A stretch of DNA of 57,247 nucleotides from an uncultured Planctomycetales bacterium. GTDB lineage: Bacteria; Omnitrophota; Gorgyraeia; Gygaellales; Profunditerraquicolaceae. Shown one piece after another: positions 10,917 to 27,675 of this stretch (positions are counted from its first letter, which is position 1; each line of letters begins with the position of its first letter). The notes beneath the pieces are model-generated. The model did no database searches. It saw only the letters and a program-made list of their open reading frames with translations, and was not told where the DNA came from. The translations under genes were made by a program, and so were the position numbers. The DNA lies in contig CAYHBB010000021.1 of the NCBI GenBank assembly GCA_964354795.1, positions 1 through 57,247 on the forward strand, read 5' to 3'.

Positions 10917-10981
10917 GACGAAGGCGTCCATTCTTTAATGCATAATTTCTGTGCACATTAAAGAGCGGGCGCTTATTTTTT
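10917..10981 (+). promoter_or_regulatory. Leader attenuator: hexaloop hairpin GAC-GAAGGC-GTC overlapping an intrinsic terminator (ANTAR-type)
   Basis: AGGCGTCC-attctttaatg...cattaaagagc-GGGCGCTT followed by ATTTTTT, between promoter and start codon. Confidence 0.6.
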
Positions 10982-10992
10982 GGTCAAATCCT

Positions 10993-11817
10993 ATGAAAAT
11001 ATTAGAAAAAGCAGTTTTATCCGATTATCAGGGCACCAGAGTGGTCAGGATGAAGGTTTTTGCCCCGCATATCGCGGCTAAAGCCAGGCCCGGGCAGTTT
11101 GTTGTGCTTATGGTCAGTGAAGTTGGGGAAAGGATCCCTTTGACCATAGTGGAACGGAATAGCGAATCCATCATTATTATTTTTCAGGAAGTGGGCTTGA
11201 CCACTAAGCTTTTGGGAAGACTTAACATCGGTGATTCCTTATACGCTATTGCCGGACCTCTGGGGCATCCTACCCAGATAAAGAATTACGGAAAAGTGAT
11301 CATAGTCGGAGGAGGGGTGGGGATAGCTGAGATCTATCCGGTGGCCCGGGCTTTTAAAGAGGCGGGAAACCATGTCACTACTATTCTGGGGGCCAGGACA
11401 AAAGATCTGCTTATTTTGGAAAAGGAACTGATGAGTGCTTCTAATGAGATCCATGTACTCACTGATGACGGCTCAAATTCCAGGAAAGGATTCACCACTG
11501 ATGCGCTGGATGAGCTTCTTTCGAAAGATAAATACGACTTGGTGTATTCAGTCGGGCCGATTCCTATGATGAAGAGGGTGGCTCAGGTGACTAAAAAATA
11601 CAATACCCTGACTATTGTGTCATTAAATGCGATCATGGTCGATGCCACAGGTATGTGCGGATGCTGCCGGGTGACCGTGGACGGCAAGACGAAGTTCAGC
11701 TGTGTGGATGGCCCGGAATTTCCGGCGCAGGCGGTAGACTGGGATGAGCTGACCAAAAGAAACCGCGTTTACGAGCAAAAAGAAAAGCATCTTTGTAATT
11801 TGAATAAAATAGTGTGA
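10993..11817 (+). CDS. nfnA: NfnA/SudB/PyrK-like FAD, [2Fe-2S] electron-transfer subunit
   Basis: PGQFV, ERIPLT, GPLG, GGGVG, MVDATGMCGCC..SCVDGPEF; ATG 10993 preferred because the GTG start lies inside the leader terminator. Confidence 0.85.
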   Translation: MKILEKAVLSDYQGTRVVRMKVFAPHIAAKARPGQFVVLMVSEVGERIPLTIVERNSESIIIIFQEVGLTTKLLGRLNIGDSLYAIAGPLGHPTQIKNYGKVIIVGGGVGIAEIYPVARAFKEAGNHVTTILGARTKDLLILEKELMSASNEIHVLTDDGSNSRKGFTTDALDELLSKDKYDLVYSVGPIPMMKRVAQVTKKYNTLTIVSLNAIMVDATGMCGCCRVTVDGKTKFSCVDGPEFPAQAVDWDELTKRNRVYEQKEKHLCNLNKIV

Positions 11818-11847
11818 TTAGCAGGAAGTAAAAAGAGGGCTAATCAA

Positions 11848-13311: not shown

Positions 13312-13313
13312 TG

Positions 13314-13357
13314 CACCCCGGCTTATAGGAACGCCGGGTGTTCCGCTTACTGCGTAA
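13314..13357 (+). repeat. Family-A two-hairpin element before gdhA RBS
   Basis: CACCCCGGC-ttataggaac-GCCGGGTG then TTCCGC-ttact-GCGTAA. Confidence 0.7.
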
Positions 13358-13367
13358 GGAGGAGAGT

Positions 13368-14705
13368 ATGTCGAAAAGAATCGAAGATTTTATGGCAAAG
13401 GTAGTAGAAAAAAACGCGGGTGAAAAGGAATTTCATCAGGCGGTGCAAGAGGTAGTCGAGTCATTGGCCCCATATATTGAAAAGAATCCCAAATATGATG
13501 ATGCCAAGATCCTGGAGAGGATGATTGAGCCGGAAAGGGTGATCATGTTTCGCGTGCCCTGGCTTAACGACAAGCAAGAGATCCAGGTCAACCGCGGATT
13601 CCGTATTGAGATGAGCAGTGCCATCGGGCCTTACAAGGGTGGATTACGATTTCATCCCAGCGTTAACTTAGGGATTTTAAAGTTTCTGGCTTTTGAGCAG
13701 GTCTTTAAAAACGCCCTTACTACGCTTCCTATGGGCGGCGGTAAGGGAGGTTCTGATTTTGATCCCAAGGGTAAATCAGATAATGAAGTGATGAAATTCT
13801 GTCAGAGCTTTATGACCGAGTTGCAAAGGCATATCGGCCCAGATACAGATGTTCCTGCCGGAGATATCGGTGTAGGCGGACGCGAGATCGGTTTTATGTA
13901 CGGCCAGTATAAAAGGCTGCGTAATGAATTTACCGGCGTACTTACCGGTAAAGGCCTAAATTGGGGCGGAAGCTTAATCCGGCCTGAAGCTACCGGATAC
14001 GGCTGCGTTTATTTTGTCCAGGAAATGCTTAAGACCAGGGGCCAGAGTTTGGAAGGCAAGGTCTGTGCGGTTTCCGGATCAGGAAATGTCGCCCAGTACA
14101 CTGTTGAGAAATTGCATCAGCTGGGAGCCAAGGTCGTAACACTCTCTGACTCTAACGGCTACATCTATGACAAAGACGGCATTGACCAAAAAGAGTTGGC
14201 TTGCGTGCTGGAGTTGAAGAATGTCAAGCGCGGCAGGATCAAGGAATGCGCTAAGGAATTCAAATGCGAATACTTCGATAATAAGAAACCCTGGGACGTT
14301 AAATGCGATATCGCTTTTCCAAGTGCCACACAGAACGAGATCGATGAGGAAGATGCCAAGACATTAGTGAAGAACGGCTGTATCGCCATCGGCGAGGGCG
14401 CGAATATGCCCAGCACTCCTGGTGCCGTGGAAGTCTTCCAGAAGGCAAAGATCCTATATGCCCCCGGCAAGGCAGCAAACGCCGGCGGGGTCGCGACCTC
14501 AGGATTAGAGATGTCGCAAAACAGCATGAGGCTCTCCTGGACACGTGAAGAGGTGGACAGGCGGCTGCATGACATCATGATCTCTATTCATGAGCAGTGC
14601 GTCAGATACGGCAAGGAAGCTAGCTACATCAATTACGTTAATGGCGCCAATATTGCGGGATTCGTCAAGATTGCGGACGCCATGATCGATCAGGGGTTGG
14701 TGTAA
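13368..14705 (+). CDS. gdhA: NADP-specific glutamate dehydrogenase
   Basis: GPYKGGLRFHPSVN, GGGKGGSDFDP, DVPAGDIGVG, RPEATGYG; AGGAGG RBS. Confidence 0.97.
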   Translation: MSKRIEDFMAKVVEKNAGEKEFHQAVQEVVESLAPYIEKNPKYDDAKILERMIEPERVIMFRVPWLNDKQEIQVNRGFRIEMSSAIGPYKGGLRFHPSVNLGILKFLAFEQVFKNALTTLPMGGGKGGSDFDPKGKSDNEVMKFCQSFMTELQRHIGPDTDVPAGDIGVGGREIGFMYGQYKRLRNEFTGVLTGKGLNWGGSLIRPEATGYGCVYFVQEMLKTRGQSLEGKVCAVSGSGNVAQYTVEKLHQLGAKVVTLSDSNGYIYDKDGIDQKELACVLELKNVKRGRIKECAKEFKCEYFDNKKPWDVKCDIAFPSATQNEIDEEDAKTLVKNGCIAIGEGANMPSTPGAVEVFQKAKILYAPGKAANAGGVATSGLEMSQNSMRLSWTREEVDRRLHDIMISIHEQCVRYGKEASYINYVNGANIAGFVKIADAMIDQGLV

Positions 14706-14715
14706 GAAATACGGC

Positions 14716-14744
14716 TTGACATAACAAGAGCCATGTGTTAATCT
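14716..14744 (+). promoter_or_regulatory. sigma70 promoter of nadE-sigma operon
   Basis: TTGACA-N17-TAATCT with TGTG extension. Confidence 0.7.
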
Positions 14745-14756
14745 TTGTTTAGGTAA

Positions 14757-14902
14757 GGCACAAAGTCAGTGCTTTAAAGGTAAGAACAAGGGGGCGTTCA
14801 AAAAACGCTCCCTTTTTCTTTGCTTTGGATTTTTAGCGCGGCAAAACGGATAATGACGTCCTTTTTTAGCAGGGCTTGCTAAGTGAGGACGTCGTTTTAT
14901 TT
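14757..14902 (+). promoter_or_regulatory. Double attenuator leader with two terminators, each overlapped by an ANTAR-like hairpin
   Basis: GAAC-aagggggc-GTTC overlapping AAGGGGGCGTT/AACGCTCCCTT+T-run; GGAT-aatgac-GTCC overlapping AATGACGTCCT/AGGACGTCGTT+TTATTT. Confidence 0.65.
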
Positions 14903-14915
14903 AGAGGAGGTAAAG

Positions 14916-16610
14916 TTGGAAAAAGAGAATTTACGCATAGCCTTAGCGCAGATAAATTGCACAGTCGGGGACCTGGTGGGAAATTCCTCTAAGATCCTGC
15001 GCTACATCCAAATGGCCAAAGATTTCTCGGCTGATATAATCGCTTTTCCGGAGCTCGCCCTTACCGGGTATCCTCCGGAAGATTTGTTGCTTAAGCCGAG
15101 TTTCATAGAAGATAATTTGTCGGCCTTAAAAGAATTAGTCAAAACCGTAGATGGCATTACGGTAGTTCTCGGTTTTGTGGATAAAAAAGGTAAAGACATC
15201 TTTAATGCTGCGGCGATTATTTATGACGGCAGGGTTTGCGGAACTTTCCAGAAGACGATCCTGCCTAACTACGGAGTTTTTGATGAAAAACGTTATTTTT
15301 CCTCCGGCAAGAATGCCCCGGTATTCAGGTTGGGTAAGGTTATCTTCGGAGTGAATATTTGTGAGGATATCTGGCACCTGGAAGGCCCTACGAAAGATCA
15401 GGCCAAAGCCAGGGCGAGATTGATCATCAATATCAACGCCTCTCCGTATTACTCGGGAAAGGTTTTAGAAAGGGAGGCGATCATCCGCAAGCAGGCCAGG
15501 TTAAACCGCGCTTTTATCACCTATACAAATCTGGTTGGCGGGCAGGATGAGCTGGTTTTTGACGGCCAGAGCATGGTGGTGGATGATTTGGGTAAGGTGA
15601 TAGCTCGCGCAGAGGCTTTTAAAGAAGAACTGCTTATAGTGGACCTAAGAATCCCGGGGAGTAAGTCAGTAAAGGCAAAATCAGCGATTACGATTACCGA
15701 TAAATTGACCAGGAAGGACAAATCGCTGACAGCGATAAAAGAGGCCGGGTTGCTGGATCCGGTTGCGGAGGTCTATCAGGCTTTGCTTTTAGGAGTAAAG
15801 GATTACGTGACAAAGAATGGTTTCAAAAAGGTAGTTATCGGCTTAAGCGGTGGAATTGATTCTTCTTTAGTCGCGGCTATTGCAAGCGATGCTCTGTGCA
15901 AGGATAACGTAATTGGAGTATTCATGCCTACGCGCTATTCGTCTTCAGAGTCAGAGATAGACGCAAGACAGGTCGCGCAAAAGCTGGGGATAGAGTTTAT
16001 TGCTCTTTCAATTGAGCAGACCTACAAAATGTATCTGGTGGTGCTAGAGCCGCTTTTTGCCGGAACGTCAAGGAATATTGCCGAAGAAAACCTGCAGGCG
16101 CGCATAAGAGGGAATGTTTTGATGGCGTTATCCAATAAATTCGGCTGGCTTGTTCTGACTACGGGGAATAAGTCTGAAATGAGCACTGGTTACGCCACGC
16201 TTTACGGTGATATGGCAGGAGGATTTGCGGTAATTAAGGATGTGCCAAAGATCATGGTTTATAAATTATCCCGCTATAGGAATTCTTTAGGGGTAGTAAT
16301 CCCTGAGCGGGTGCTGACCAAAGAGCCGACCGCTGAATTAAAGCCGGGTCAATTAGACCGGGATACTCTCCCCGCATATGAAGAGCTTGACCTTATCCTT
16401 AAGGCATATGTAGAGGATGATGAGGATCCGGCAAAGATAATTTCTTCGGGATTTGACGGTCAGACTGTCTCAAAAGTGATTTGCATGGTGGATAAAAGCG
16501 AATACAAGCGCCGCCAGTCTCCGCCGGGTATAAAGATCACGCCCAAGGCATTCGGCAGGGATAGAAGGATGCCTATTACTAATAAATATCGAGGCCAAGA
16601 TGGTATTTGA
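14916..16610 (+). CDS. nadE: Glutamine-dependent NAD+ synthetase
   Basis: Nitrilase-fold FPELALTGYPPED, NICED; synthetase GLSGGIDS, ENLQARIRG, TGNKSE; TTG start after GAGGAGG. Confidence 0.95.
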   Translation: MEKENLRIALAQINCTVGDLVGNSSKILRYIQMAKDFSADIIAFPELALTGYPPEDLLLKPSFIEDNLSALKELVKTVDGITVVLGFVDKKGKDIFNAAAIIYDGRVCGTFQKTILPNYGVFDEKRYFSSGKNAPVFRLGKVIFGVNICEDIWHLEGPTKDQAKARARLIININASPYYSGKVLEREAIIRKQARLNRAFITYTNLVGGQDELVFDGQSMVVDDLGKVIARAEAFKEELLIVDLRIPGSKSVKAKSAITITDKLTRKDKSLTAIKEAGLLDPVAEVYQALLLGVKDYVTKNGFKKVVIGLSGGIDSSLVAAIASDALCKDNVIGVFMPTRYSSSESEIDARQVAQKLGIEFIALSIEQTYKMYLVVLEPLFAGTSRNIAEENLQARIRGNVLMALSNKFGWLVLTTGNKSEMSTGYATLYGDMAGGFAVIKDVPKIMVYKLSRYRNSLGVVIPERVLTKEPTAELKPGQLDRDTLPAYEELDLILKAYVEDDEDPAKIISSGFDGQTVSKVICMVDKSEYKRRQSPPGIKITPKAFGRDRRMPITNKYRGQDGI

Positions 16611-17130
16611 GGCCTTTTTAAGAAGATTATCCGCGACAATAAGGCGGATCGCCTACAAACTGAACCGCTATCCCGCCTATTTTAATGACGAGGACCTATA
16701 TCAGGAGGCTATTATTCATCTTTGGCAGGATTTTAGCCAGGGAAAGCTAGCGGATAAAACAGATAGCTACATATTACAGGGTTGTTATTTTCACCTGAAG
16801 AATTATATTCGTAAACACAGGGAAAAGGCCGCGAGAGTCAGCCTCGATGAGATGCTTTTTGATGAAGATAACGGGCTGACCAGAGAAGAAGTATTACTGG
16901 TTGAGCCGCGTAATGGAGTAAGCCACTACGATTTCTATAATAATAAATTATTAGCCGATACCATACGTAATAATGGGCTTACTAGCAGAGAAAAATTGAT
17001 ACTATCTTTTTGCTCGGATGGGCTGACTATGCGCGAAATTGGCAAGCGGATCGGCGTTTCGCACGTGAGCGTAGTGAAATCGCTAAAGATCATCAGGGGC
17101 AAATGCCAGAAATATTTGGATAAGGAATAA
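16600..17130 (+). CDS. sigma70-family group 4 (ECF-like) RNA polymerase sigma factor
   Basis: Region 2 EDLYQEAIIHLW..LKNYIRK; region 4 LTSREKLIL..GLTMREIGKRIGVSHVSV; 176 aa; overlaps nadE stop. Confidence 0.85.
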   Translation: MVFEAFLRRLSATIRRIAYKLNRYPAYFNDEDLYQEAIIHLWQDFSQGKLADKTDSYILQGCYFHLKNYIRKHREKAARVSLDEMLFDEDNGLTREEVLLVEPRNGVSHYDFYNNKLLADTIRNNGLTSREKLILSFCSDGLTMREIGKRIGVSHVSVVKSLKIIRGKCQKYLDKE

Positions 17131-17135
17131 AATAA

Positions 17136-17165
17136 GTTACCAAACCAGGCAGATATTTACTTGTA
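17136..17165 (+). promoter_or_regulatory. Candidate alternative-sigma promoter of amtB-glnK-glnA
   Basis: GTTACCAAA-N13-TACTTGTA, same boxes and spacing at 21153-21182. Confidence 0.65.
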
Positions 17166-17176
17166 GTGTTGTAACA

Positions 17177-17246
17177 TACACAGGGATGTGTAGAAACTTA
17201 AGGCGTCTTTAAATCCATTGCAGGATATAAAGGCGCCTATTTGTTT
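17177..17246 (+). promoter_or_regulatory. ANTAR-type leader and terminator upstream of amtB
   Basis: TACAC-agggat-GTGTA (A1/G4 hexaloop), degenerate second hairpin, terminator AGGCGTCTTTA..TAAAGGCGCCT-ATTTGTTT. Confidence 0.65.
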
Positions 17247-17261
17247 ATATGAGGAGGGGAA

Positions 17262-18491
17262 ATGATTAATTCTGGCGATACGGCGTGGGTTTTAATCTCA
17301 TCGGCGCTGGTGTTGCTGATGACTCCGGGGCTTGCATTTTTCTATGGCGGCATGGTAAGAAAGAAGAATGTTTTAAGTGTTTTGATGCAGTGTTTTGTAA
17401 TGTTATGTCTCTTGACTGTTTATTGGGTGCTCTTTGGCTACAGCCTTTCTTTTGCTCCCAGTAAGGGCTTCTGGGGAGGACTTAGTTGGTTTGGTTTAAA
17501 TGGAGTCGGTCTTGAGCCATATGCAGGGTATGGCGGGACTATCCCCCATCAGGCATTTATGATATTTCAGGCGATGTTTGCTATAATCACGCCTGCTCTT
17601 ATTATCGGAGCCTTTGCCGAGAGGATGCGCTTTTCCGCATTTCTAGTATTCAGTCTTCTTTGGGCTACTTTTGTGTATTCTCCGCTTTGCCACTGGGTTT
17701 GGGGCGAGGGAGGATGGCTAAAGAATCTTGGCGTAATGGACTTTGCCGGAGGTATAGTCGTGCACACAAGCGCAGGAATTGCTGCCTTAGTTGTCGCATT
17801 GAGTATAGGTAAAAGAAAGAATCTCGATCATAATGTGCCGTCCCCTCATAATCTGCCTTTGGTGGTATTAGGAACAGCTTTACTCTGGTTCGGCTGGTTT
17901 GGTTTTAATGCCGGAAGCGCCTTGGCGGCCAACGGTCTGGCAGTCAGCACTTTTGTGGTTACAAATGCCGCTGCGGCAAGCGCAGGCCTGACATGGGCGT
18001 TGCTTGAGTGGATACGTAACGGCAAACCTACAGTCTTCGGTACTGTAACAGGGTCAATCGCGGGACTTGCCACTATTACTCCAGGGTCTGGCTTCGTAAG
18101 TCCAGTCTCGGCATTAGTAATAGGCATGTTGGCTAGCATTCTGTGTTTTATCGGGATAGCGGTAGTAAAGCCAAAATTCGGCTACGATGATTCTTTGGAC
18201 GCGTTTGGAGTACATGGTTTAGGCGGGATTCTGGGAACACTGGCCACAGGTTTATTTGCTTCTAAGCTGATTAACCCTGCCGGAGCAGATGGATTATTCT
18301 TTGGCAATCCCAGACAATTTCTTATCCAAGGAGTTGGGATCCTAGTTGCCGTAGTCTATACTTTAGTCGTTACTTTCATTATATATAAATTGGTAGATAT
18401 ATTCTTCAAGATGCGTGTAAATGAAAAAGAGGAACTTATGGGTCTTGATTTGACGCAGCATCGCGAAAGAGCGTATACAGTATTAGAATAA
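17262..18491 (+). CDS. amtB: Ammonium transporter
   Basis: [58 protein letters not shown]. Confidence 0.97.
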
Positions 18492-18492
18492 T

Positions 18493-18534
18493 CACTTTGC
18501 CCTATCGGATGGGCAAGTGTTCACTTTTTGTGAA
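18493..18534 (+). repeat. Family-A two-hairpin element before glnK RBS
   Basis: CACTTTGCCC-tatcggat-GGGCAAGTG then TTCAC-ttttt-GTGAA. Confidence 0.7.
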
Positions 18535-18546
18535 GGAGGGCAAATC

Positions 18547-18888
18547 ATGAAATTAATAATTGCGATAATTCAGCCTTATAAATTGGAAGAAGTAAAAGAA
18601 GAATTATATAAGGCAGAGGTTAATCTAATTACCGTAAGCGAAGTTTTGGGACACGGCCGGCAAAAAGGAATAACTGAAGTCTACAGGGGCGCGAAAGAAA
18701 CTGGTAATCTTTTAAGGAAAGTGCGTCTTGAGATTGCGGTAAATGAGGGTTTTGTTGAGCCGACTATTAAGGCGATTATCAAGGGTGCTAAAACCGGCGA
18801 GACAGGGGACGGCAAAATATTCGTACTTGATTTAAAAGAGTGCGTGCGCATACGTACCGAAGAACGGGGAGGTGTGGCGATAGGATAA
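18547..18888 (+). CDS. glnK: P-II nitrogen regulatory protein
   Basis: [33 protein letters not shown]; follows amtB. Confidence 0.95.
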
Positions 18889-18951
18889 ATAATCCGATTG
18901 TTTTTTGCGCAGAATATGATAGGATAAAAACAGAGATAAACGGAGGAATAT

Positions 18952-21147
18952 ATGAGCATAAGGCAAAAAGTATTATTTGAAATAAAGAGCATAGAATTGG
19001 CAAAGGCTAAGACCCCTAAGAAAGTCTCCAGCTATTTTGGCGTGAACACTTTTGGCCTTGAGAATATGCGTAAGCATATTTCCCCTAAGACATTTAGCGC
19101 TTTTAAGGTATGGATGTCTGAAGGCAAGACCATTACTCTTCAGCAGGCAAACGAGATCGCCAATGCCATGAAAGAATGGGCGATTTCCAAGGGTGCGACC
19201 TATTACACGCATTGGTTTCAGCCGATGACCGGTATGACTGCTGAGAAGCATGATAGTTTTATTTCTATTGTCGGCCCCGGCAAGGTCATTGAGAAATTCT
19301 CCGGCAATAAGCTCATTCAGGGCGAGCCGGATGCCTCCAGTTTTCCTTCAGGCGGTATACGCGCTACCTTTGAAGCGCGCGGCTATACTGCCTGGGATCC
19401 TTCCAGCCCCGCGTTTATCATCGAAAGCGCGCTGGGTAAGACCCTGTGTATTCCCACTATATTTATATCCTATCACGGAGCGGCTCTGGATAAAAAGCTG
19501 CCACTTTTACGTTCTGATGAAGCCCTTAATAAATCCGCTGTCGGGCTTTTAAAGCTTTTTGGCCATAAGAATATCAAAAAGGTATTTTCTACTTGCGGAG
19601 CGGAGCAGGAGTATTTTCTGATAGATAAGAATTATTATAATCTGCGCCAGGATTTGGTTATGGCCGGACGCACCCTGATCGGAGCTCCTTCGCCCAAAGG
19701 GCAGCAGCTAGAGGACCAGTATTTTGGCACGATTAAAGAGCGCGTAGTCAATTTCATGTTTGAGGTAGCTGAGGAAGCATATAAACTAGGTATACCGCTG
19801 ATGACCCGGCATAATGAGGTGGCGCCCCACCAGTATGAGTTTGCGCCGATTTTTGAGGAGTCAAATATCGCGGCCGACCATAATCAGTTGCTCATGGAGC
19901 TGATGAAGAAAGTGGCTTTGCGGCATAATCTGGTTTGCCTTTTGCATGAGAAACCTTTTGCTGGGGTAAACGGAAGCGGAAAACACTTGAATTGGTCTTT
20001 GTCTGATGATCTGGGAAATAACCTGCTTAATCCGGGTGAGACTCCCGAAGATAATCTGCAGTTTTTAACCATATTGGCCGCGGTCCTGCGAGCTGTCTAT
20101 CTTCATGCTGACCTTTTGCGCGCATCGGTCGCCCTGGCAGGGAATGAACATCGCCTGGGCGCGAATGAAGCTCCTCCGGCAATTGTCAGCGTATTCTTAG
20201 GAGAACAACTAACTTCTGTCCTGGATATGCTTGAAAAAGGGGTAAAGGCCAAGGTTTCTAAGCGTGATATTATTGATTTGGGTATTGCGCGCTTACCACA
20301 GTTTAACAAAGATTCTACTGATAGAAACCGCACTTCGTCTTTCGCCTTCACCGGTTCAAAGTTTGAGTTCCGCGCGGTGGGCTCGTCTCAGAATGTTTCT
20401 ACTCCGATCACAGTGGTCAATACCATAATCGCCGATAGCCTTGATTATGTCGCCAGAGAGATAAAAAAGGTTACTTCCACGGGGAAAGATTTTAATTCTT
20501 CGGTCTTAAAGGTGATTAGTAAAATAATTAAAGAAACTAAGGGGGTGCGTTTTGAGGGGAATAACTACGCCCCGGAGTGGGTAAAAGAAGCCAAGAGAAG
20601 GGGCCTGCCGAATGTCGCGGCAACTTATGAGGCTTTAGAGGCTTTGACTGAAGAAGAGAATATCGAGCTCTTTGAGAAATACAAAGTCTTTTCTAAAGAG
20701 GAGTTGATCGCGCGATACCATATATGGATCCATATGTATAATCTGACGCTGGAGATTGAGGCAAATACTTTAAATGAAATGGTGAATGCCTCGGTTGTGC
20801 CCGCAGGTTATGAATACGAGAAACTCCTTGCCCGCACGCTTGATGAGTTGATCAGGCTCAAGAAGTCCGCGGGGCTTAAGGTGGATCCGGCGGCGCTTAA
20901 AGATAAGAAAGAGCATTTAAGTGACATCGTCTCTAAGATCTACTATGTAAGACATAATACGGGAGAGATGATCAAGCTTCTGGAGAAGGCCAAAAAGGTC
21001 AGTGACGAAAAACGGGCTGAGCTTTATTTTAAGCAGCTTAAGCCGCTGATGGAGCATATCCGTCGGCACGTGGATGACCTTGAACGCGTGGTTTCGGATG
21101 ATGCCTGGGACCTTCCGAAATACCGCGAGATGCTCTTTATTAAGTAA
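18952..21147 (+). CDS. glnA: Glutamine synthetase type III
   Basis: THWFQPMTG..AEKHD, GEPDASSFPSGG.R.TFEARGYTAWD, LHEKPFAGVNGSGKH, TDRNRTS. Confidence 0.96.
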   Translation: MSIRQKVLFEIKSIELAKAKTPKKVSSYFGVNTFGLENMRKHISPKTFSAFKVWMSEGKTITLQQANEIANAMKEWAISKGATYYTHWFQPMTGMTAEKHDSFISIVGPGKVIEKFSGNKLIQGEPDASSFPSGGIRATFEARGYTAWDPSSPAFIIESALGKTLCIPTIFISYHGAALDKKLPLLRSDEALNKSAVGLLKLFGHKNIKKVFSTCGAEQEYFLIDKNYYNLRQDLVMAGRTLIGAPSPKGQQLEDQYFGTIKERVVNFMFEVAEEAYKLGIPLMTRHNEVAPHQYEFAPIFEESNIAADHNQLLMELMKKVALRHNLVCLLHEKPFAGVNGSGKHLNWSLSDDLGNNLLNPGETPEDNLQFLTILAAVLRAVYLHADLLRASVALAGNEHRLGANEAPPAIVSVFLGEQLTSVLDMLEKGVKAKVSKRDIIDLGIARLPQFNKDSTDRNRTSSFAFTGSKFEFRAVGSSQNVSTPITVVNTIIADSLDYVAREIKKVTSTGKDFNSSVLKVISKIIKETKGVRFEGNNYAPEWVKEAKRRGLPNVAATYEALEALTEEENIELFEKYKVFSKEELIARYHIWIHMYNLTLEIEANTLNEMVNASVVPAGYEYEKLLARTLDELIRLKKSAGLKVDPAALKDKKEHLSDIVSKIYYVRHNTGEMIKLLEKAKKVSDEKRAELYFKQLKPLMEHIRRHVDDLERVVSDDAWDLPKYREMLFIK

Positions 21148-21152
21148 TTTAG

Positions 21153-21182
21153 GTTACCAAAAGAGCTAAGTTTCTACTTGTA
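21153..21182 (+). promoter_or_regulatory. Candidate alternative-sigma promoter of the HTH-gltBD unit
   Basis: GTTACCAAA-N13-TACTTGTA, second copy. Confidence 0.65.
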
Positions 21183-21199
21183 TATATAGAAGCACTATA

Positions 21200-21290
21200 G
21201 GCACGCTGCAGTGTCCTAGGTAAAATAGTAAAATCGAACAGAGACGTTCATGATGGCAAAGTATTTTGCCAGAGTGAACGTCTTTTTTTT
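21200..21290 (+). promoter_or_regulatory. ANTAR-type dual hairpin and terminator upstream of the gltBD unit
   Basis: GGCAC-gctgca-GTGTC, GAAC-agagac-GTTC overlapping AGACGTTCAT..GTGAACGTCT plus T-run. Confidence 0.7.
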
Positions 21291-21321
21291 GAGCCAGCGC
21301 TGATTAAATTTTAGGCATAAT

Positions 21322-21699
21322 ATGCTCACTATAGTGATAGCGGATGACGAGATGAAGGCAAAAGAGGCGCTTGAAAAGTTATTCAGGGAGCAGGGGTATG
21401 TTTTCTCTGAAGAAGCAAATCAGGGCAATATTATCAGGTTCGTGAAAAAAGACTGTATCCGTGACCTTGCTTTTATAAAAGATAAGGCCATTGAACTGGG
21501 GGATGAGCTTTTTAGCGAGAAAAAAGGCGTGCTTTATAAGTCGGTATTAGAAGCTATTGAAAAGCCCTTGATCGAGCAGACGCTGGAGCGTACTGAGGGA
21601 AACCAGCTTAAGGCTGCCAGGATTCTGGGGATAAACCGTAATACTATGCGCGCAAAGATTAAGAAGCTGGGTATTAACACGCAGCATTATAGAAGATAA
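21322..21699 (+). CDS. Small Fis/NtrC-type HTH protein with truncated receiver-like N-terminus
   Basis: IVIADDE N-terminus; C-terminal EKPLIEQTLERTEGNQLKAARILGINRNT. Confidence 0.8.
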   Translation: MLTIVIADDEMKAKEALEKLFREQGYVFSEEANQGNIIRFVKKDCIRDLAFIKDKAIELGDELFSEKKGVLYKSVLEAIEKPLIEQTLERTEGNQLKAARILGINRNTMRAKIKKLGINTQHYRR

Positions 21700-24600
21700 T
21701 GAAGATGAATAATCGGGAAAAGACTGCAAAATTTGGTTTATATGATCCGCAGTTTGAACATGATTCCTGCGGGGTGGGGTTTGTCTGCGATATCAAGGGT
21801 CGCAAGTCTAATTCTATAGTCCGGCAGGGTATTGAGGTTTTGCATAGGTTGGCGCATCGCGGGGCGGTGGGCGCAGATCCGAAAACCGGAGACGGGGCAG
21901 GCCTCTTGATCCAGATGCCGCATGATTTCTTCAAAAAAATAGCGAAGGAGTCCAAGATTGATTTACCTCAACCGGGGGCATACGGGACCGGGTTGATATT
22001 CCTGCCCCAGGGTGGCCAAGAGCGTCAATTCTGCAAAGAAGCGTTTGAGAAGGCTATAAAAGAGCAGGGCCAGATGCTTTTGGGTTGGCGTGTGGTCCCT
22101 ATAGACAATTCTGGTATTGGAGAAAGCGCCAAAACAACTCAGCCTGTTTTTGAGCAGGTATTTATCGCACGAAACAAGGACTTAAGCGATGATCTGGCAT
22201 TTGAAAGGCAGCTCTATTGTATAAGGAAACGGGGTGAGAATGCTGTCGGTTCATCTGAGCTTAAGCAAAAAAAGGCTTTTTATATCACTAATCTTTCCTG
22301 CCGCACATTTTCTTACAAGGGCCTGCTTATGCCAAATCAGCTGGATAATTTCTTTCTTGACCTGAAGGATGAATTAATGAGCAGCGCTTTATGCCTTGTG
22401 CACTCGCGTTATTCAACTAATACTTTTCCTACCTGGGACCTGGCGCAGCCCTTCAGGTTCCTGGCCCATAACGGAGAAATTAATACTATCCGCGGCAATA
22501 TAAACGGGGTAAGCGCCAGAGAGCGTCTCTTGACAAGTGAGTTATTCGGTCCGGATATTGAGCTACTCAAGCCGGTGATCGTTGAGGGGGGAAGTGATTC
22601 CGCGGCAATCGATAATTTCTTTGAGCTTTTAGTTTTATCAGGCAGGTCTCTGGAACACGCGATGATGATGCTTATTCCCGCTGCCTGGGAGCATGATTTA
22701 CAGATGAGTCGGGAACTCAGGGAATTTTACAAATATCATGCCTGTTTTATGGAGCCGTGGGACGGGCCGGCAGCAATAGCCTTCACAGACGGAAAAAGTA
22801 TTGGCGCCGTGCTGGACAGAAACGGCCTGCGTCCCGCCCGTTATATTATAACCAAAGATGACTTTGTGGTCATGGCGTCTGAGGTGGGTGTTTTGGATAT
22901 CGATCCTTCGCAAATCAAAGTCTCCGGGAGGCTTGAGCCGGGTAAAATATTCTTTATCGATACCGAGTCCGGCCGGATAGTGGAAGATACTGATATCAAG
23001 AAAAAGGTTTCTATGCGCTCTGCATATGGAAAATGGAATGAAGAGAGCATGGTGGATTTGGATAAGCTGATCTCAAGCGCAGCTGCGAATAAAAGGCCGC
23101 AGGATTTAATTTCCAGCCTTAAGGTTTTTGGTTATTCGCGCGAAGACCTAAAGCTTATCTTAAGGCCCATGGCCCAGGAAGGTAAGGAGCCAGTGGGCTC
23201 CATGGGTAATGACGCGCCCCATGCTTTTTTGTCAAAGATGCCGCAGGTCCTTTATAACTATTTCAAGCAGCTATTCGCGCAGGTGACCAATCCACCTATT
23301 GATTCCATACGGGAAAAAATAGTGATGAGCCTGGAAAGCTACATAGGGCCTGAAAAAAACATCCTTGAGGAGACGCCTAAACATAGCCACAAACTCAGGG
23401 TGCGTAATCCCATATTGCGTGATGAGGAGCTTGAGAAGATCCGCGATATCAGCATAAACAGTTTTAAGGCAAAAACGATATTTACTTTTTTTGACGCAGC
23501 TAGCGGCCAGGATGGATTCTTGCACGCCCTGGAGAGGATATGTTTTGAGGCGGAATACGCCATCGAGAAAGGTTATTCTTTTATAATATTAAGCGACCGG
23601 GGAACAGATAGGGATAATATCGCGCTGCCGGCGCTTCTGGCTACCAGCGCCATACACCATTATCTGGTGAAAAAGACCATACGTTCGCAGGTCGCTTTGA
23701 TAGTAGAAAGCGCAGAGCCCAGAGAAGTGCACCATATGGCCTTACTTTTCGGTTACGGAGCGGATTGCGTAAATCCCTATCTTGCTTATCAGGCGATAGA
23801 ATATCTCATAGAGGAAAAAGAGATAAGCCTTGACCGTAAGATCGCGCTGAAAAATTATAATAAGGCATTAACAGATGGGATATTAAAAATATTATCCAAG
23901 ATGGGCATATCTACCCTAAGGAGTTACCGCGGGGCGCAGATATTCGAGGCGCTGGGCCTGGAGAATGAGTTTATAGATAAGTATTTTACCGGAACCGTAT
24001 CGCGTCTTTCCGGGGTCGGTCTTGAAGGGATAATGGAGGATACAATAAATAGGCATAGGGAGGCTTATTGCGCAAGGGACATAGAGACAAATTACCTCTC
24101 AAGCGGTGGCGTATATCAGTGGAAAAGGGATGGAGAAACCCACCTTTGGAACCCGCAAAGCATAGCAGCTTTACAGGATGCCGCAAGAGAGGCTGATTAT
24201 GGCAAGTATAAGGAGTTTGCTGCGCTGATAAACAACCAGTCGCAAAATCCTACTACCCTGCGCAGTCTTCTGAAATTTAAGGTAGCCAAGCCGATTTCTA
24301 TTGATGAGGTAGAGCCGATTGAGAATATTATGCGGCGATTTGTGACCGGGGCGATGAGTTTTGGCTCGATAAGTGCCGCGGCGCACGAGACTATCGCTAT
24401 CGCAATGAATCGCATAGGCGGTAAGTCTAACACCGGAGAGGGTGGCGAGGATCCCAATAGATTCGTGGCCCTGCCCAACGGTGATTCCCGCAGGAGCGCT
24501 ATAAAACAGGTAGCTTCGGGAAGGTTCGGGGTCACCATAAATTATCTGGTCAACGCGGATGAAATACAGATAAAGATCGCTCAAGGCGCGAAACCCGGAG

Positions 24601-26237
24601 AGGGTGGGCAATTGCCCGGGCATAAAGTAAGCGGCGTGATTGCAAGGACCAGGTATACTACTCCCGGAGTGACGCTTATATCTCCTCCTCCGCACCACGA
24701 TATATATTCTATCGAGGATCTCGCACAGCTAATATTTGACCTGAAGAACGCCAATTCTCAGGCGCGGGTCAGCGTCAAGCTTGTTTCCGAAGTTGGGGTG
24801 GGTACGGTTGCGGCAGGAGTGGCTAAGGGCCACGCCGACATGATTTTAATCTCCGGGGGAGACGGTGGCACGGGAGCCTCTCCTTTAAGCTCAATAAAAT
24901 ACGCTGGGCTTCCCTGGGAGCTGGGCCTTTCCGAGACGCATCAGACGCTTTTGCTGAATAACCTGCGTTCCAGGGTCCGCCTGCAGACTGACGGACAGAT
25001 ACGTACCGGCCGCGATGTGGCGATAGCGGCAATGCTGGGAGCGGAAGAGTATGGTTTTTGCTCGGCAGTGCTGGTAGTAATGGGCTGCGTTATGCTAAGG
25101 CACTGCCATCTTAATAACTGTTCGGTGGGCGTAGCTACGCAGGATGATTGTCTGCAGAAAAGGTTTAGGGGCAGGCCGGAACATATAGTAAATTATTTTC
25201 GTTTTGTCGCCGAGGAACTTCGCCAGATCATGGCGCTCCTTGGCTTAAGGACAATAGATGAGATGATAGGAAGAACAGACCTTCTTGAGATAGATAGCGC
25301 CATTGTACCGACTAAGGCAAAGGGCGTGGATTATTCCCGCATTCTCTATAAACCTGAGGTTCCCGAGGGTGTAGGCCGATACTGTAAGTCCAGGCAGGAT
25401 AGCGGCCTGGATGCGGTCCTGGATAAAGAGCTTATAAAGATGTGCCGGGAAGGCCTTGAGAAAAATAAGCCGGTGAATCTCTCAAGCAAGATTAATAATA
25501 CTAACAGGGCCGTTGGCGCAATGTTAAGCGCAGAGGTGTGCAAGAGATGCGGGGATAACGTTCTTTTGGAAGATACCATTACCTGTAAATTTACAGGCAT
25601 TGCCGGACAGAGTTTCGGCGCGTTTCTGGCTAAGGGTATTACCTTTGAGCTGGAGGGGATGGCCAATGACTATGTAGGTAAAGGGATATCAGGAGGAAAG
25701 ATTATAATATATCCCGATAAAGAATCCGAGTATAAGTCCGATGAGAATATACTTATCGGTAACACTACATTCTATGGGGCAATATCCGGTGAGGCATATA
25801 TCAGTGGGATCGCCGGAGAAAGGTTTTGTATAAGGAATTCCGGGCTCTATGCTGTTGTGGAGGGAGTGGGAGACCACGGGTGTGAGTATATGACCGGAGG
25901 AAGAGTGGTTGTATTAGGTAAGACCGGAAGAAATTTCGCCGCCGGTATGTCAGGCGGGATAGCTTATGTGTATGATGAAGATAAGGCCTTCAGGAACAGG
26001 TGCAACATGGATATGGTCGAGCTGGAAAAGATCAGGGAAGTTGACTTAGATACAATATATAACCTGTTGCATAACCATTTTAAGTACACCTTAAGCAGCA
26101 AGGCAAAAAAAATTATCAATAATCTTTCCGAAGAGCTTAAGAATTTCGTCAAAGTCATACCGATAGAGTATAAGAATATCCTTGAGGGAGTGAAACTAGA
26201 GGAAAAGCTGGATTTAGCGGAGGCGTCTGATGGGTGA
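21699..26237 (+). CDS. gltB: Glutamate synthase large subunit
   Basis: EHDSCGVGF, HSRYSTNTFP, KSNTGEGGE, IKQVASGRFGV, GDHGCEYMTGG. Confidence 0.98.
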   Translation: MKMNNREKTAKFGLYDPQFEHDSCGVGFVCDIKGRKSNSIVRQGIEVLHRLAHRGAVGADPKTGDGAGLLIQMPHDFFKKIAKESKIDLPQPGAYGTGLIFLPQGGQERQFCKEAFEKAIKEQGQMLLGWRVVPIDNSGIGESAKTTQPVFEQVFIARNKDLSDDLAFERQLYCIRKRGENAVGSSELKQKKAFYITNLSCRTFSYKGLLMPNQLDNFFLDLKDELMSSALCLVHSRYSTNTFPTWDLAQPFRFLAHNGEINTIRGNINGVSARERLLTSELFGPDIELLKPVIVEGGSDSAAIDNFFELLVLSGRSLEHAMMMLIPAAWEHDLQMSRELREFYKYHACFMEPWDGPAAIAFTDGKSIGAVLDRNGLRPARYIITKDDFVVMASEVGVLDIDPSQIKVSGRLEPGKIFFIDTESGRIVEDTDIKKKVSMRSAYGKWNEESMVDLDKLISSAAANKRPQDLISSLKVFGYSREDLKLILRPMAQEGKEPVGSMGNDAPHAFLSKMPQVLYNYFKQLFAQVTNPPIDSIREKIVMSLESYIGPEKNILEETPKHSHKLRVRNPILRDEELEKIRDISINSFKAKTIFTFFDAASGQDGFLHALERICFEAEYAIEKGYSFIILSDRGTDRDNIALPALLATSAIHHYLVKKTIRSQVALIVESAEPREVHHMALLFGYGADCVNPYLAYQAIEYLIEEKEISLDRKIALKNYNKALTDGILKILSKMGISTLRSYRGAQIFEALGLENEFIDKYFTGTVSRLSGVGLEGIMEDTINRHREAYCARDIETNYLSSGGVYQWKRDGETHLWNPQSIAALQDAAREADYGKYKEFAALINNQSQNPTTLRSLLKFKVAKPISIDEVEPIENIMRRFVTGAMSFGSISAAAHETIAIAMNRIGGKSNTGEGGEDPNRFVALPNGDSRRSAIKQVASGRFGVTINYLVNADEIQIKIAQGAKPGEGGQLPGHKVSGVIARTRYTTPGVTLISPPPHHDIYSIEDLAQLIFDLKNANSQARVSVKLVSEVGVGTVAAGVAKGHADMILISGGDGGTGASPLSSIKYAGLPWELGLSETHQTLLLNNLRSRVRLQTDGQIRTGRDVAIAAMLGAEEYGFCSAVLVVMGCVMLRHCHLNNCSVGVATQDDCLQKRFRGRPEHIVNYFRFVAEELRQIMALLGLRTIDEMIGRTDLLEIDSAIVPTKAKGVDYSRILYKPEVPEGVGRYCKSRQDSGLDAVLDKELIKMCREGLEKNKPVNLSSKINNTNRAVGAMLSAEVCKRCGDNVLLEDTITCKFTGIAGQSFGAFLAKGITFELEGMANDYVGKGISGGKIIIYPDKESEYKSDENILIGNTTFYGAISGEAYISGIAGERFCIRNSGLYAVVEGVGDHGCEYMTGGRVVVLGKTGRNFAAGMSGGIAYVYDEDKAFRNRCNMDMVELEKIREVDLDTIYNLLHNHFKYTLSSKAKKIINNLSEELKNFVKVIPIEYKNILEGVKLEEKLDLAEASDG

Positions 26238-27675
26238 TCCGAGAGGTTTTCTAAAACTGGCAAGAATTAATAGCTCTTACCGGCAGGTATGTGAGCGCAT
26301 CCGGGATTTCGCGGAGGTTTCCAAAGCGCGCCCTGAGAAGCAGTCGCAGGAACAGGCTTCGCGCTGCATGGACTGCTCTACGCCATTTTGCCATTCAGGT
26401 TGCCCGATAGGAAACTATATCCCGGAGTGGAATGACTATATGTTCCGCGGAAACTGGAAGGAAGCTATAGCATTGCTAGAGGCCACAAATAACCTTCCTG
26501 AAATAACCGGAAGGATCTGTCCAGCATTGTGCGAGTATGCCTGTGTATTGGGGCTAAACGATGACGCGGTGACCATCCGCGAGAATGAGCTATCGCTTAT
26601 AGAATACGGTTTCAAAAACGGAGCGATCAAACCGAGCATTATTGCATATAAGACAGGCAAGAAAATAGCGGTTATCGGTTCAGGCCCGGCAGGGTTATCC
26701 TGCGCAGCGCAGCTTAACCGGGCAGGCCATAATGTTATTGTTTTTGAGCGGGATGAGCGACCTGGCGGGATATTGCGCTATGGTATCCCGGATTTTAAGC
26801 TCGCCAAACACCTTATAGACCGGCGAATTGATGTCTGGAAAGAGGAAGGCGTTGAATTCAGGACCAGCGTGGATGTCGGCAAGGATTATCCGGCGAATAA
26901 ACTTTTAAGCGATTTTGACGCGGTTTGTTTGGCAGGTGGTTCCCGCGTGCCGCGGGATCTTTTAATCCAGGGCAGGGAATTAAAAGGGATATATTTTGCC
27001 ATGGATTACCTGATGCAATCAAACAAGTGCGTGGCTAAGGAAATAATTCCCAAAGATGAAATTATTGATGCGAAAGGAAAGAAAGTGGTAGTCATCGGAG
27101 GAGGGGATACCGGCGCCGATTGCGTAGGTACAGCTCATCGTCAAGGCGCTTCATGTGTAGTGCAAATTGAAGTGATGCCGAGGCCTGATGAATGTAGGAC
27201 CAGCGCTTACCCCTGGCCGAAATATCCTCTGCTTCTTAAGACATCCTCCAGCCACGAAGAAGGCGGAGAACGTCACTGGGCGGTATTGACAAAGAGCTTT
27301 ATTGGGGGAAATGGTTGCGTAAATAAGCTTTCCTGCGTAAGGGTGGATTTTACTCAAATAGATGCTAAAGCCTGCCCTGTTATGAAAGAGGTTTCGGGAA
27401 GCGAGTTTGAAATCGAGGCGGACCTGGTGATTCTGGCCATGGGTTTCCTGCATCCTGAGCATCTAGGCCTGCTAACTGAGCTGAAAGTCAAATTTGACAA
27501 GCGGGGCAACGTGTCAACCGATTCAAATTATATGACCTCGGTTGAAAAGGTGTTCTCCGCGGGAGATATGCGGCGTGGGCAATCGCTGGTGGTCTGGGCG
27601 ATTTCAGAAGGAAGGCGCGCAGCTTATTTTATAGATAAATACCTGATGGGTGAAAGCAATCTGGCGATTATGTAG
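26230..27675 (+). CDS. gltD: Glutamate synthase small subunit
   Basis: MGDPRGFL, RCMDC.TPFCH.GCP, GGGDTGADC, GDMRRGQSLVVWAISEGR. Confidence 0.97.
   Translation: MGDPRGFLKLARINSSYRQVCERIRDFAEVSKARPEKQSQEQASRCMDCSTPFCHSGCPIGNYIPEWNDYMFRGNWKEAIALLEATNNLPEITGRICPALCEYACVLGLNDDAVTIRENELSLIEYGFKNGAIKPSIIAYKTGKKIAVIGSGPAGLSCAAQLNRAGHNVIVFERDERPGGILRYGIPDFKLAKHLIDRRIDVWKEEGVEFRTSVDVGKDYPANKLLSDFDAVCLAGGSRVPRDLLIQGRELKGIYFAMDYLMQSNKCVAKEIIPKDEIIDAKGKKVVVIGGGDTGADCVGTAHRQGASCVVQIEVMPRPDECRTSAYPWPKYPLLLKTSSSHEEGGERHWAVLTKSFIGGNGCVNKLSCVRVDFTQIDAKACPVMKEVSGSEFEIEADLVILAMGFLHPEHLGLLTELKVKFDKRGNVSTDSNYMTSVEKVFSAGDMRRGQSLVVWAISEGRRAAYFIDKYLMGESNLAIM

Follow-up and report, generated by a model that had tools for sequence, protein, structure and literature searches.

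A candidate sigma factor for nitrogen assimilation and its putative two-box promoter in the phylum Omnitrophota

Introduction

Regulatory diversity has a textbook example in the way bacteria switch on high-affinity ammonium assimilation, for which sigma-54/NtrC, GlnR/TnrA, NtcA, AmtR and NrpR are the known solutions. Here we describe a locus from Omnitrophota, a phylum with almost no experimental genetics. It lies on contig CAYHBB010000021.1, analysed as one stretch of 57,247 nt (hereafter the window), from an assembly of 1,688,043 bases in 41 contigs with a completeness of 92.9% (~93%). The locus combines an open reading frame (ORF) for a sigma-like protein of 176 aa with two copies of a two-box element, placed before an amtB operon and before a gltBD operon. 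The protein is probably an alternative sigma factor, with GTTACCA-N15-TACTT(GTA) as its promoter and nitrogen assimilation as its regulon; from the sequence evidence we put the probability of this reading at about 0.7.

Described systems approach parts of this arrangement. HrpL and the PvdS-type iron-starvation sigmas are extracytoplasmic function (ECF) sigma factors that have no anti-sigma and whose control lies in their own transcription, and ECF promoters carry an AAC/CGT pattern. ComX-type competence sigmas are small and have an 8-nt -10-like box beginning with TAC. At the RNA level, NasR, AmiR and GnfR of Geobacter are ANTAR antitermination systems further to EutV and NasT. According to the main text of PMC7826278, a co-encoded anti-sigma is usual, not universal, among ECF sigmas, and autoregulation from the sigma's own target promoter is likewise usual, ECF32 and ECF203 being named as not autoregulated. 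The ANTAR target is described, in part of PMC8934654, as dual hexaloops with A1 and G4 of which the second overlaps a terminator, and part of the commentary PMC3369936 places many predicted ANTAR leaders beside genes for the acquisition of ammonium, nitrate and dinitrogen and for glutamine synthetase (GS).

Our literature search returned no sigma-70-family or ECF sigma dedicated to ammonium transporter and glutamine synthetase genes, and nothing relevant on Omnitrophica/Omnitrophota in combination with sigma factor or ANTAR. The words 'ammonium', 'glutamine', 'nitrogen' and 'Omnitroph' do not occur in the main text of PMC7826278, whose supplements may describe such a group.

A two-box element before two nitrogen operons

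On the + strand of the window the motif GTTACCAAA-N13-TACTTGTA matches exactly at two places, as an initial annotation of this DNA had claimed: all 17 box positions are identical between the copies, and the 13-nt spacers differ and are unrelated. The features concerned are:

16600..17130, + strand: sigma-like ORF, 176 aa, overlapping the end of nadE by 11 nt
17136..17165, + strand: promoter-like element 1, with the proposed -35 box GTTACC(AAA) at 17136-17144 and the proposed -10 box TACTTGTA at 17158-17165
17262..21147, + strand: proposed target operon 1, amtB-glnK-type III glutamine synthetase (GSIII) (Pfam; orthologous order seen in relatives)
21153..21182, + strand: promoter-like element 2, with GTTACC(AAA) at 21153-21161 and TACTTGTA at 21175-21182
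21322..27675, + strand: proposed target operon 2, HTH_8-gltB-gltD (Pfam; NCBIfam)

Element 1 starts 5 nt beyond the sigma stop codon and element 2 at the same distance beyond that of GSIII. Both directly precede leader hairpins, as annotated, followed in the predicted fold by a terminator-like stem and a T run. The boxes are non-palindromic and unrepeated. No further match with up to three mismatches was found in the window (100 shuffles: mean 0.13, none with two or more), and across the whole 1.69-Mb assembly, which was covered by all genome-wide scans, these two sites were the only zero-mismatch matches. The genome scan that the annotation had proposed, carried out with the relaxed core GTTACC-N16-TACTT, recovered only the same two sites, with none for the reversed pattern used as control.

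The leaders had also been said to have no obvious sigma-70-type promoter. This holds for the amtB leader (no site in 17131-17261); in the HTH_8-gltBD leader one weak match (9/12) lies at 21198-21226. Over the whole scanned region sigma-70-type consensus sites were fewer than in shuffles.

Conservation of the element and the genes behind it

Relatives were examined in two sets, 61 sampled genomes of the host's order and 301 genomes drawn across the phylum Omnitrophota. Within the order, GTTACC-N16-TACTTGTA gave 63 exact matches in 29 genomes, typically two to six per genome, on the same strand and a few kb apart; with up to one mismatch there were 93 matches versus 19 for the reversed control. 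Single-mismatch matches in three genomes (G020, G041 and G059) lay inside ORFs or had no leader; we took them as chance occurrences and did not count them.

For site statistics, 90 candidates were reduced to 78-79 distinct sites. Candidates were removed if the last three -10 bases fell outside a list of seven variants, and about nine more because they lay inside genes or were without the flanking signature; the site logo and the hexaloop counts (below) additionally left out sites too close to a contig end. Because the motif itself entered the selection, part of the invariance at the selected positions is built in. At positions that were not searched, A occupies position 7 in 75 of 78 sites and T position 22 in 73; a T-rich stretch at 18-21 precedes TACTT, and T stands at position 35, five bases past the 8-mer, in 62 sites. 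T29 is found in 73 of 78 sites, as is A30. The 13-16 nt separating the boxes are unconserved and have no pairing partner.

In 76 of the 79 sites the first recognisable same-strand gene downstream belongs to the nitrogen-assimilation group. The first genes are distributed as follows:

17 sites of 79: amtB
17 sites of 79: type III glutamine synthetase
13 sites of 79: type I glutamine synthetase
11 sites of 79: HTH_8, then gltB
9 sites of 79: an ORF of ~265 aa with no Pfam family, amtB being next wherever the locus is long enough
7 sites of 79: a P-II paralog
1 site of 79: a porin gene before amtB
1 site of 79: an amidotransferase
3 sites of 79: kdpA-kdpB; a ferredoxin-domain gene; nothing recognised

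The kdpA-kdpB site belongs to genome G022 (contig C73). In two further genomes, from a more distant family, the single strict site precedes genes of other kinds, namely a methyl-accepting chemotaxis protein (MCP) gene in G042 and, in G053, a HAMP-domain gene cut off by the contig end. Placement of the motif before kdpA-kdpB, MCP and HAMP genes suggests that the composition of the regulon shifts from lineage to lineage.

Co-occurrence of the sigma gene and the motif

Orthologs of the sigma were found in 35 of the 61 order genomes, a count that includes two cut by contig ends and one fragment of 18 residues, and in 68 of the 301 phylum genomes. In the order sample the motif, with up to two mismatches, stands directly 3' of the sigma gene in 23 of the 30 listed loci, and 63 of 79 unique sigma orthologs are followed, within -40 to +230 of the stop codon, by the core GTTACCA-N15-TACTT. 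For the 301 genomes, sigma presence was called by a profile of the family and the motif by the strict pattern GTTACC-N16-TACTTRWW, and the two tables were tallied against each other. The strict motif occurs in 69 genomes; 57 genomes have both, 11 the sigma only, 12 the strict motif only and 221 neither, so that the motif is present in 57/68 genomes with the sigma versus 12/233 without it.

Nine of the 11 with the sigma only carry a variant of the motif near the sigma gene (ATTACC, GTTAAC or other last three -10 bases), and no variant was found near the sigma in the other two (G227 and G265). The variant final -10 bases seen are ATG, AGG, TAG, TGA, GTC, TGT and CTG. Among the 12 with the motif only, eight matches have no flanking A or T-run and look like chance occurrences. 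Two others (G255 and G343) have the motif at a contig end, on the side on which the sigma gene is expected, and G255 retains at that edge a 21-residue match to the sigma C-terminus. The remaining two are G291, taken up below, and G221. In the sigma-less G221, nadE is followed by a remnant of TACTTGTA with the usual downstream bases and a leader before amtB, with no GTTACC box; this gap between nadE and amtB looks like the scar of a sigma gene deletion.

The initial annotation had named persistence of the motif in relatives lacking the sigma as an outcome that would refute its interpretation. What we found is largely the reverse, nitrogen genes kept and the motif missing. Seven sigma-less genomes (G023, G026, G033, G034, G036, G040 and G294) keep adjoining amtB and/or GS/gltB genes, and no motif with up to three mismatches stands beside these genes, the stretches in G033 and G036 being limited by contig ends. 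Two of them, G023 and G040, carry the HTH_8 gene, and an ANTAR domain is present in 53 of the 61 order genomes independently of the sigma. As HTH_8, ANTAR and the nitrogen genes all persist without the motif, the motif, by this genome comparison, follows the sigma rather than any of these.

Sigma-70 promoters in equivalent positions

The sigma gene itself appears to be served by a promoter of the ordinary kind:

14716..14744, + strand: sigma-70-type promoter of the nadE-sigma operon, with TTGACA at 14716-14721, a 17-nt spacer ending in TGT, and TAATCT at 14739-14744

The consensus scanner missed this promoter, whose second hexamer agrees at only 3/6 positions, and it was read by eye. Relatives show the same layout: TTGACn-N16-18-TAnnnT precedes 11 of the 13 sigma orthologs that have an upstream region of their own, followed by a hexaloop hairpin and two terminators. 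Around the motif, a sigma-70-type match within -100 to +130 was found at only 2 of 79 sites.

In sigma-less relatives the two promoter types appear to have been exchanged. G023 and G034 have TTGACA-N17-TATACT before an amtB leader of the same hexaloop/terminator layout, and G294 has TTGACA-N16-TATACT before nadE, amtB being reached through attenuators with no sigma gene between. Where a genuine sigma-70 promoter occurs in these genomes, it comes close to consensus (TTGACA-N17-TAtAcT). One kind of leader is thus preceded, at one and the same position, by either of two mutually exclusive promoter types, as expected if the motif is the promoter of another sigma. We also considered a housekeeping -10 box in or after TACTTGTA and rejected it, the T/A pattern being out of register between amtB-type and glnA/gltB-type sites and a -35 box being absent. 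The initial proposal that the sigma drives the amtB, GS and glutamate synthase (GOGAT) promoters thus draws support from co-occurrence, from the downstream genes and from these apparent promoter swaps.

The sigma protein

Judged by profile matches and a structural model, the 176-aa protein is a genuine minimal two-domain sigma-70-family factor that fits no subfamily among the Pfam and NCBIfam models compared. It passes NCBIfam TIGR02937 (sigma70-ECF superfamily), scoring 55.8 bits where 42.9 is the cut-off, across residues 3-173; the best NCBIfam subfamily model reaches 30 bits against cut-offs of 124-190. Pfam Sigma70_r2 (21.2 bits, cut-off 24) and Sigma70_ECF (20.0 bits, cut-off 21.1) remain under their thresholds, and GerE likewise falls just below. 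The closest database homologs are labelled sigma-70 family factors from Candidatus Omnitrophica/Omnitrophota genomes, and a single-sequence scan of 1.84 billion cluster representatives returned only 424 relatives at E <=0.001; by these searches the family has so far been seen in Omnitrophota.

The AlphaFold2 model (74 aligned relatives; predicted local distance difference test, pLDDT, 88.5) has two helical domains, the bundles being joined by a lower-confidence linker at residues 78-110. Domains 2 and 4 only are present, with no region 1.1 or domain 3, and the helices of domain 4 are modelled at 129-139, 144-151 and 155-173. All top 20 listed Foldseek matches in the PDB are sigma factors (probability 0.99-1.00), led by a B. 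subtilis sigma-H model, S. aureus SigB, M. tuberculosis SigL/SigH and E. coli sigma-E. Template-modelling (TM) scores are low, 0.30-0.39, which we attribute, on the model, to the free orientation of the two sigma domains. The family profile matches region 4 of the SigB, FliA and SigF structures (E 2.2e-11 to 4.4e-07) and region 2 of solved sigmas more weakly. Domain 2 (regions 2.1-2.4), its core-binding segment included, is indicated by conserved residues as well: at least 90% of the 74 sequences retain each of D32 and E36 (in the DLYQE stretch), L41 and W42. The invariant or near-invariant residues of the alignment, Y57, C62, N68, R71, R145, S154, V158 and K160, fall in the modelled helices 55-77, 144-151 and 155-173 or just before the last; we regard these helices as the ones through which domains 2 and 4 read DNA.

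The initial annotation had described the gene as an orphan, and indeed no anti-sigma gene adjoins it, its neighbours being nadE upstream and amtB downstream; in relatives the upstream gene varies (nadE, gdhA, an ANTAR gene, others). The label 'ECF-like' stands in part: the two-domain architecture and the TIGR02937 match agree with it, and the protein fits no NCBIfam subfamily model, has no anti-sigma and is not autoregulated, the motif never preceding the sigma gene itself, which in 11/13 cases has the sigma-70-type promoter instead. A search for covariation between sigma residues and the -10 box (motif position 28) gave high columns at S56, L59, Q60 and K67 in the domain-2 helix, and also at many positions elsewhere, and was set aside.

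Leaders and the ANTAR protein

The initial annotation had seen leader hairpins. These are present, and they are more than plain hairpins: by their layout all three leaders of the nitrogen block are ANTAR-type hexaloop/terminator attenuators. Their parts, all on the + strand, are:

14754..14902, + strand: nadE-sigma leader, with a hairpin at 14754-14776 (loop starting AAAG) and two stems; fold z = -3.36
14788-14814 and 14855-14893, + strand: stems of the nadE-sigma leader, the first of them terminator-like, each with a T run (the second read by eye)
17166..17261, + strand: amtB leader; fold z = -4.79
17177-17192, + strand: P1 hairpin of the amtB leader, with hexaloop AGGGAT if the stem has 4 bp
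17201-17238, + strand: terminator-like stem of the amtB leader in the fold, then ATTTGTTT
21183..21321, + strand: HTH_8-gltBD leader; fold z = -4.85
within 21194-21221, + strand: P1 hairpin of the gltB leader, with hexaloop GCTGCA
21236-21249, + strand: P2 of the gltB leader, GAAC-AGAGAC-GTTC (read by eye)
~21240-21283, + strand: terminator stem of the gltB leader, with a T run to 21290; its 5' arm consists of the P2 loop and 3' arm

In 19 aligned amtB-type leaders the changes in the P1 stem are compensatory, and the loop has G4 in 19/19 and A1 in 15/19. Across 79 leaders there are 117 A1/G4 hexaloop hairpins versus a shuffle mean of 31 and maximum of 44 (100 shuffles), about a fourfold excess; with a loose hairpin definition, the first begins a median of ~16-17 nt past the end of the motif. 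The overlap of P2 with the terminator is common in relatives as AAC-AnnGGC-GTT before GGCGTTC. In the window it is clear in the gltB leader, and the P2 stem of the amtB leader is imperfect. Rfam at gathering scores recognised one tRNA only in the window, and nothing in 14700-21400 at E <=1; a covariance model built from the 19 amtB-type leaders matched, in the host genome, only its own member. Several leaders (L009, L011, L012, L118 and others) hold between their terminators an extra stem-loop, CACACC...(short palindrome)...GGGTG, possibly a repeat element or an additional RNA signal.

One ANTAR protein is encoded in the host genome, a GAF-ANTAR protein of 241 aa (71.6 bits against a cut-off of 27.3):

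L038:1468-2193, contig C40, - strand: GAF-ANTAR gene, by ANTAR domain match

Its GAF domain is closest in NCBIfam to those of NifA and PtsP, and in two relatives (G018 and G038) an ANTAR match stands on the strand of the sigma gene, ~200 nt 5' of it. From these features the GAF-ANTAR antiterminator acting on the leaders probably senses the nitrogen signal. As the sigma gene lies downstream of an ANTAR-type leader and a sigma-70 promoter of its own operon, its product seems to form a second tier rather than the sensor.

The nitrogen block and its neighbours

According to Pfam matches of the window ORFs, the nitrogen block spans 13.3-30.3 kb, all on one strand, in the order gdhA, nadE, sigma ORF, amtB, P-II, type III glutamine synthetase, HTH_8, gltB, gltD and a PPDK_N/PEP-synthase-like gene. 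Its members, the sigma ORF aside, are:

14883..16610, + strand: nadE, glutamine-dependent NAD+ synthetase (Pfam CN_hydrolase and NAD_synthase)
17262-18491, + strand: amtB (Pfam)
probably 18547-18888, + strand: glnK/P-II, 113 aa, as in orthologs (Pfam)
18952-21147, + strand: type III glutamine synthetase (Pfam)
21322-21699, + strand: small HTH_8 protein, 125 aa, of the Fis/NtrC-C-terminal type (Pfam)
21699-26237, + strand: gltB (Pfam)
26230-27675, + strand: gltD (Pfam)
27775-30342, + strand (that of gltBD), 3' of gltD: PPDK_N/PEP-synthase-like gene, 855 aa (Pfam)

Two starts need comment. The GTG start of nadE at 14883, a mechanical ORF call, falls within the second terminator stem of its leader, and the TTG at 14917, preceded by GGAGG, is more likely to be the start; for glnK the ATG at 18547 is probably used rather than the GTG at 18517.

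The gdhA gene is preceded by a single sigma-70-like consensus match (ATGACC-17-TATAAT, 13261-13289), the one support here for the view of the initial annotation that gdhA stays on a sigma-70 promoter. Within 10951-14705, upstream of gdhA, lies an oxidoreductase pair resembling NfnAB-type or GltD-like proteins, of 288 aa (DHODB_Fe-S_bind and NAD_binding_1) and 487 aa (Fer4_20 and Pyr_redox_2), itself preceded by the ATP synthase beta and epsilon genes. At the other end of the block, the PPDK_N/PEP-synthase-like protein matches the PEP synthase models of Pfam and NCBIfam only weakly and partially; in G265 this gene sits directly 3' of the sigma gene.

The HTH_8 gene is kept directly before gltB in nearly all relatives, sigma-less ones included, and its product, only 62-82 aa in some relatives, might help to regulate the gltBD operon as well. 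Two other ORFs recur among relatives. One, of ~70-90 aa and cysteine-rich (paired Cys motifs and a 'QCEEF' stretch), is found in their nitrogen clusters, where it stands just 5' of an attenuator leader, upstream of nadE, amtB or the sigma gene (G026, G040, G033, G012 and G035). The other is the conserved ORF of ~265 aa, with no Pfam match at E <=1e-05, which heads many relatives' amtB operons; it lies between motif and amtB (e.g. L075:8838-9653, - strand) and is missing from the window's own operon.

Proposed mechanism and alternative explanations

Taken together, the sequences are consistent with the following scheme. The -35 box GTTACC would be recognised by domain 4 of the sigma and the -10 box TACTTGTA by domain 2, and transcription would start a few bases past the element, just ahead of the first leader hairpin. 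In the host the regulon would consist of two operons, amtB-glnK-GSIII and HTH_8-gltBD(-PPDK_N). The sigma would be co-transcribed with nadE from the sigma-70-type promoter, behind a hexaloop leader with two terminators. The GAF-ANTAR antiterminator would sense the nitrogen status and let RNA polymerase through the leaders; antitermination would first raise sigma synthesis, the sigma would then open the GTTACCA-N15-TACTTGTA promoters, and each target transcript would again need antitermination. The sequences themselves show the motif with its conservation, its placement and the genes behind it, its co-occurrence with the sigma, the fold of the sigma, the structures of the leaders and the existence of a GAF-ANTAR gene. 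We infer in this scheme the binding of the sigma to the motif, the start positions, the binding of the ANTAR protein to the leaders, the signal sensed and the direction of the response.

Several observations weigh against assigning the element to this sigma. Two sigma-less genomes have a good motif, at completeness values of 93% and 96%: G291, sigma-less by profile and ambiguous in status, and G221, which has one intact motif before another operon. Many sigma-less genomes have lost the nitrogen module altogether (four of the five tested are without amtB), so that only about eight are informative, and these are related to one another and not independent. Physical linkage, too, inflates the co-occurrence in part, since the first motif lies right beside the sigma gene and overlaps its 3' end in ~25/63 orthologs. 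In three genomes of one family (G042, G053 and G055) the sigma is present and most intergenic regions of the amtB/GSIII/gltB cluster are without a convincing motif, some having sigma-70-like -10 boxes; each has one strict motif, away from the cluster (in G055 at a contig end). Within the cluster, G042 has a site with two mismatches and G055 one with three. The columns covarying with the -10 box are spread over the whole protein, for which shared ancestry alone would suffice. Finally, the GTTACC and TACTTGTA boxes are unlike the AAC/CGT pattern of ECF promoters and thus have no precedent there.

Other explanations of the element start from the same data. It might be a promoter read by another factor, either a different ECF-like sigma or the housekeeping sigma with an activator at GTTACC, the neighbouring sigma gene being merely one more member of the nitrogen cluster. 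The host genome does have five other Sigma70_r2 matches, and the weak TA...T after TACTTGTA (T29 and A30 in 73/78, T35 in 62/78) could serve as a housekeeping -10; however, the invariant TACTT core and the T-rich stretch are then left without a role, near-consensus sigma-70 promoters take the place of the motif in just those positions where no sigma is present, and the motif both co-occurs with and physically abuts this sigma. We regard this explanation as unlikely. Improbable, too, is an operator or activator site for a non-sigma DNA-binding regulator such as the HTH_8 protein. A bipartite element is what many protein-binding sites look like, and a gene of the Fis/NtrC C-terminal type is conserved within the regulon, but it is present as well in G023 and G040, which have neither sigma nor motif; moreover, the boxes are neither palindromic nor repeated, a sigma-70-type match for such a regulator to act on lies near only 2 of 79 sites, and two boxes at a fixed 16-nt gap fit a -35/-10 pair.

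An action of the element as RNA, as a processing site or a motif bound by an attenuator protein within a long 5' leader or read-through transcript, is very improbable. Leaders of the same hairpin/terminator build stand behind sigma-70 promoters with no element present, the boxes are separated by 13-16 nt that show neither conservation nor a pairing partner, and no Rfam family was found in 14700-21400 at E <=1. In its favour, the 5-nt gaps contain no terminator between the upstream stop codons and the motif, so that read-through RNA would contain it, and the bases after TACTTGTA are partly conserved. The reading of the element as the promoter of the neighbouring sigma stays the most likely one.

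A broader proposal is evenly poised: a class of Omnitrophota would run its central nitrogen assimilation with a separate sigma family and promoter grammar (GTTACCA-N15-TACTT) placed in series with a GAF-ANTAR riboregulator, which would gate first the synthesis of the sigma and then each sigma-dependent transcript. Such a sigma/attenuator feed-forward cascade would stand where other bacteria have sigma-54/NtrC, GlnR/TnrA, NtcA or AmtR, and lineages would repeatedly have exchanged its promoter and sigma-70 promoters before unchanged leaders.

Comparison with known systems

If the reading is true, a sigma-70-family factor for amtB, GS and GOGAT would be a further solution to the control of ammonium assimilation, an example of sigma and antiterminator layers on the same operons and an orthogonal sigma/promoter pair for synthetic biology. 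The system is unusually well defined at the sequence level: one small protein, a proposed promoter of 6+5(+3) invariant bases, a compact regulon, and promoter swaps that nature provides in relatives lacking the sigma. It could thus be tested in vitro or in E. coli, with no need to culture the organism.

The classical counterpart for nitrogen limitation is sigma-54/NtrC of Proteobacteria, which likewise places dedicated sigma promoters before amtB-glnK, glutamine synthetase and glutamate synthase genes, if the Omnitrophota elements are such promoters. Unlike sigma-54, the Omnitrophota protein is of the sigma-70 type, its motif is not GG-N10-GC and no enhancer-binding protein is implied; searches of the 92.9%-complete genome, in which controls matched, found neither the sigma-54 DNA-binding domain PF04552 nor the activator domain PF00158.

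With ECF sigmas lacking an anti-sigma it shares a minimal two-domain structure, co-encoding with its proposed targets and the absence of autoregulation; having neither anti-sigma nor autoregulation, its activity would be set by the amount made. A group-specific bipartite promoter, as predicted here, is also an ECF trait. In contrast to ECF sigmas, its regulon would be central nitrogen assimilation, not envelope stress, iron uptake or secretion, and it is apparently gated by transcription attenuation, not by a DNA-binding regulator.

In structure the protein resembles B. subtilis sigma-H, its best Foldseek match (9a4r_A, E 3.6e-05, identity ~20%), and the Fusobacterium sigma-H chain 3mzy aligns over positions 29-169 of the family profile. 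The regulons of sigma-H and ComX, unlike that proposed here, are sporulation or competence, and no shared family membership is established by these matches.

The leaders resemble those of EutV and NasT, as far as these are covered in the sources cited, in their A1/G4 hexaloop hairpins and, clearly so in the gltB leader, in a second hexaloop whose 3' side overlaps the terminator stem. Unlike in known ANTAR systems, the sensor is a GAF domain, not a receiver or NIT domain, and the attenuators occur together with a putatively dedicated sigma and promoter and would control the sigma gene too. We have not seen this two-tier combination of sigma and ANTAR described before. As far as the sequences indicate, an alternative sigma with a dedicated regulon would be of a known kind, and the two-tier sigma/ANTAR design would be the unexpected addition.

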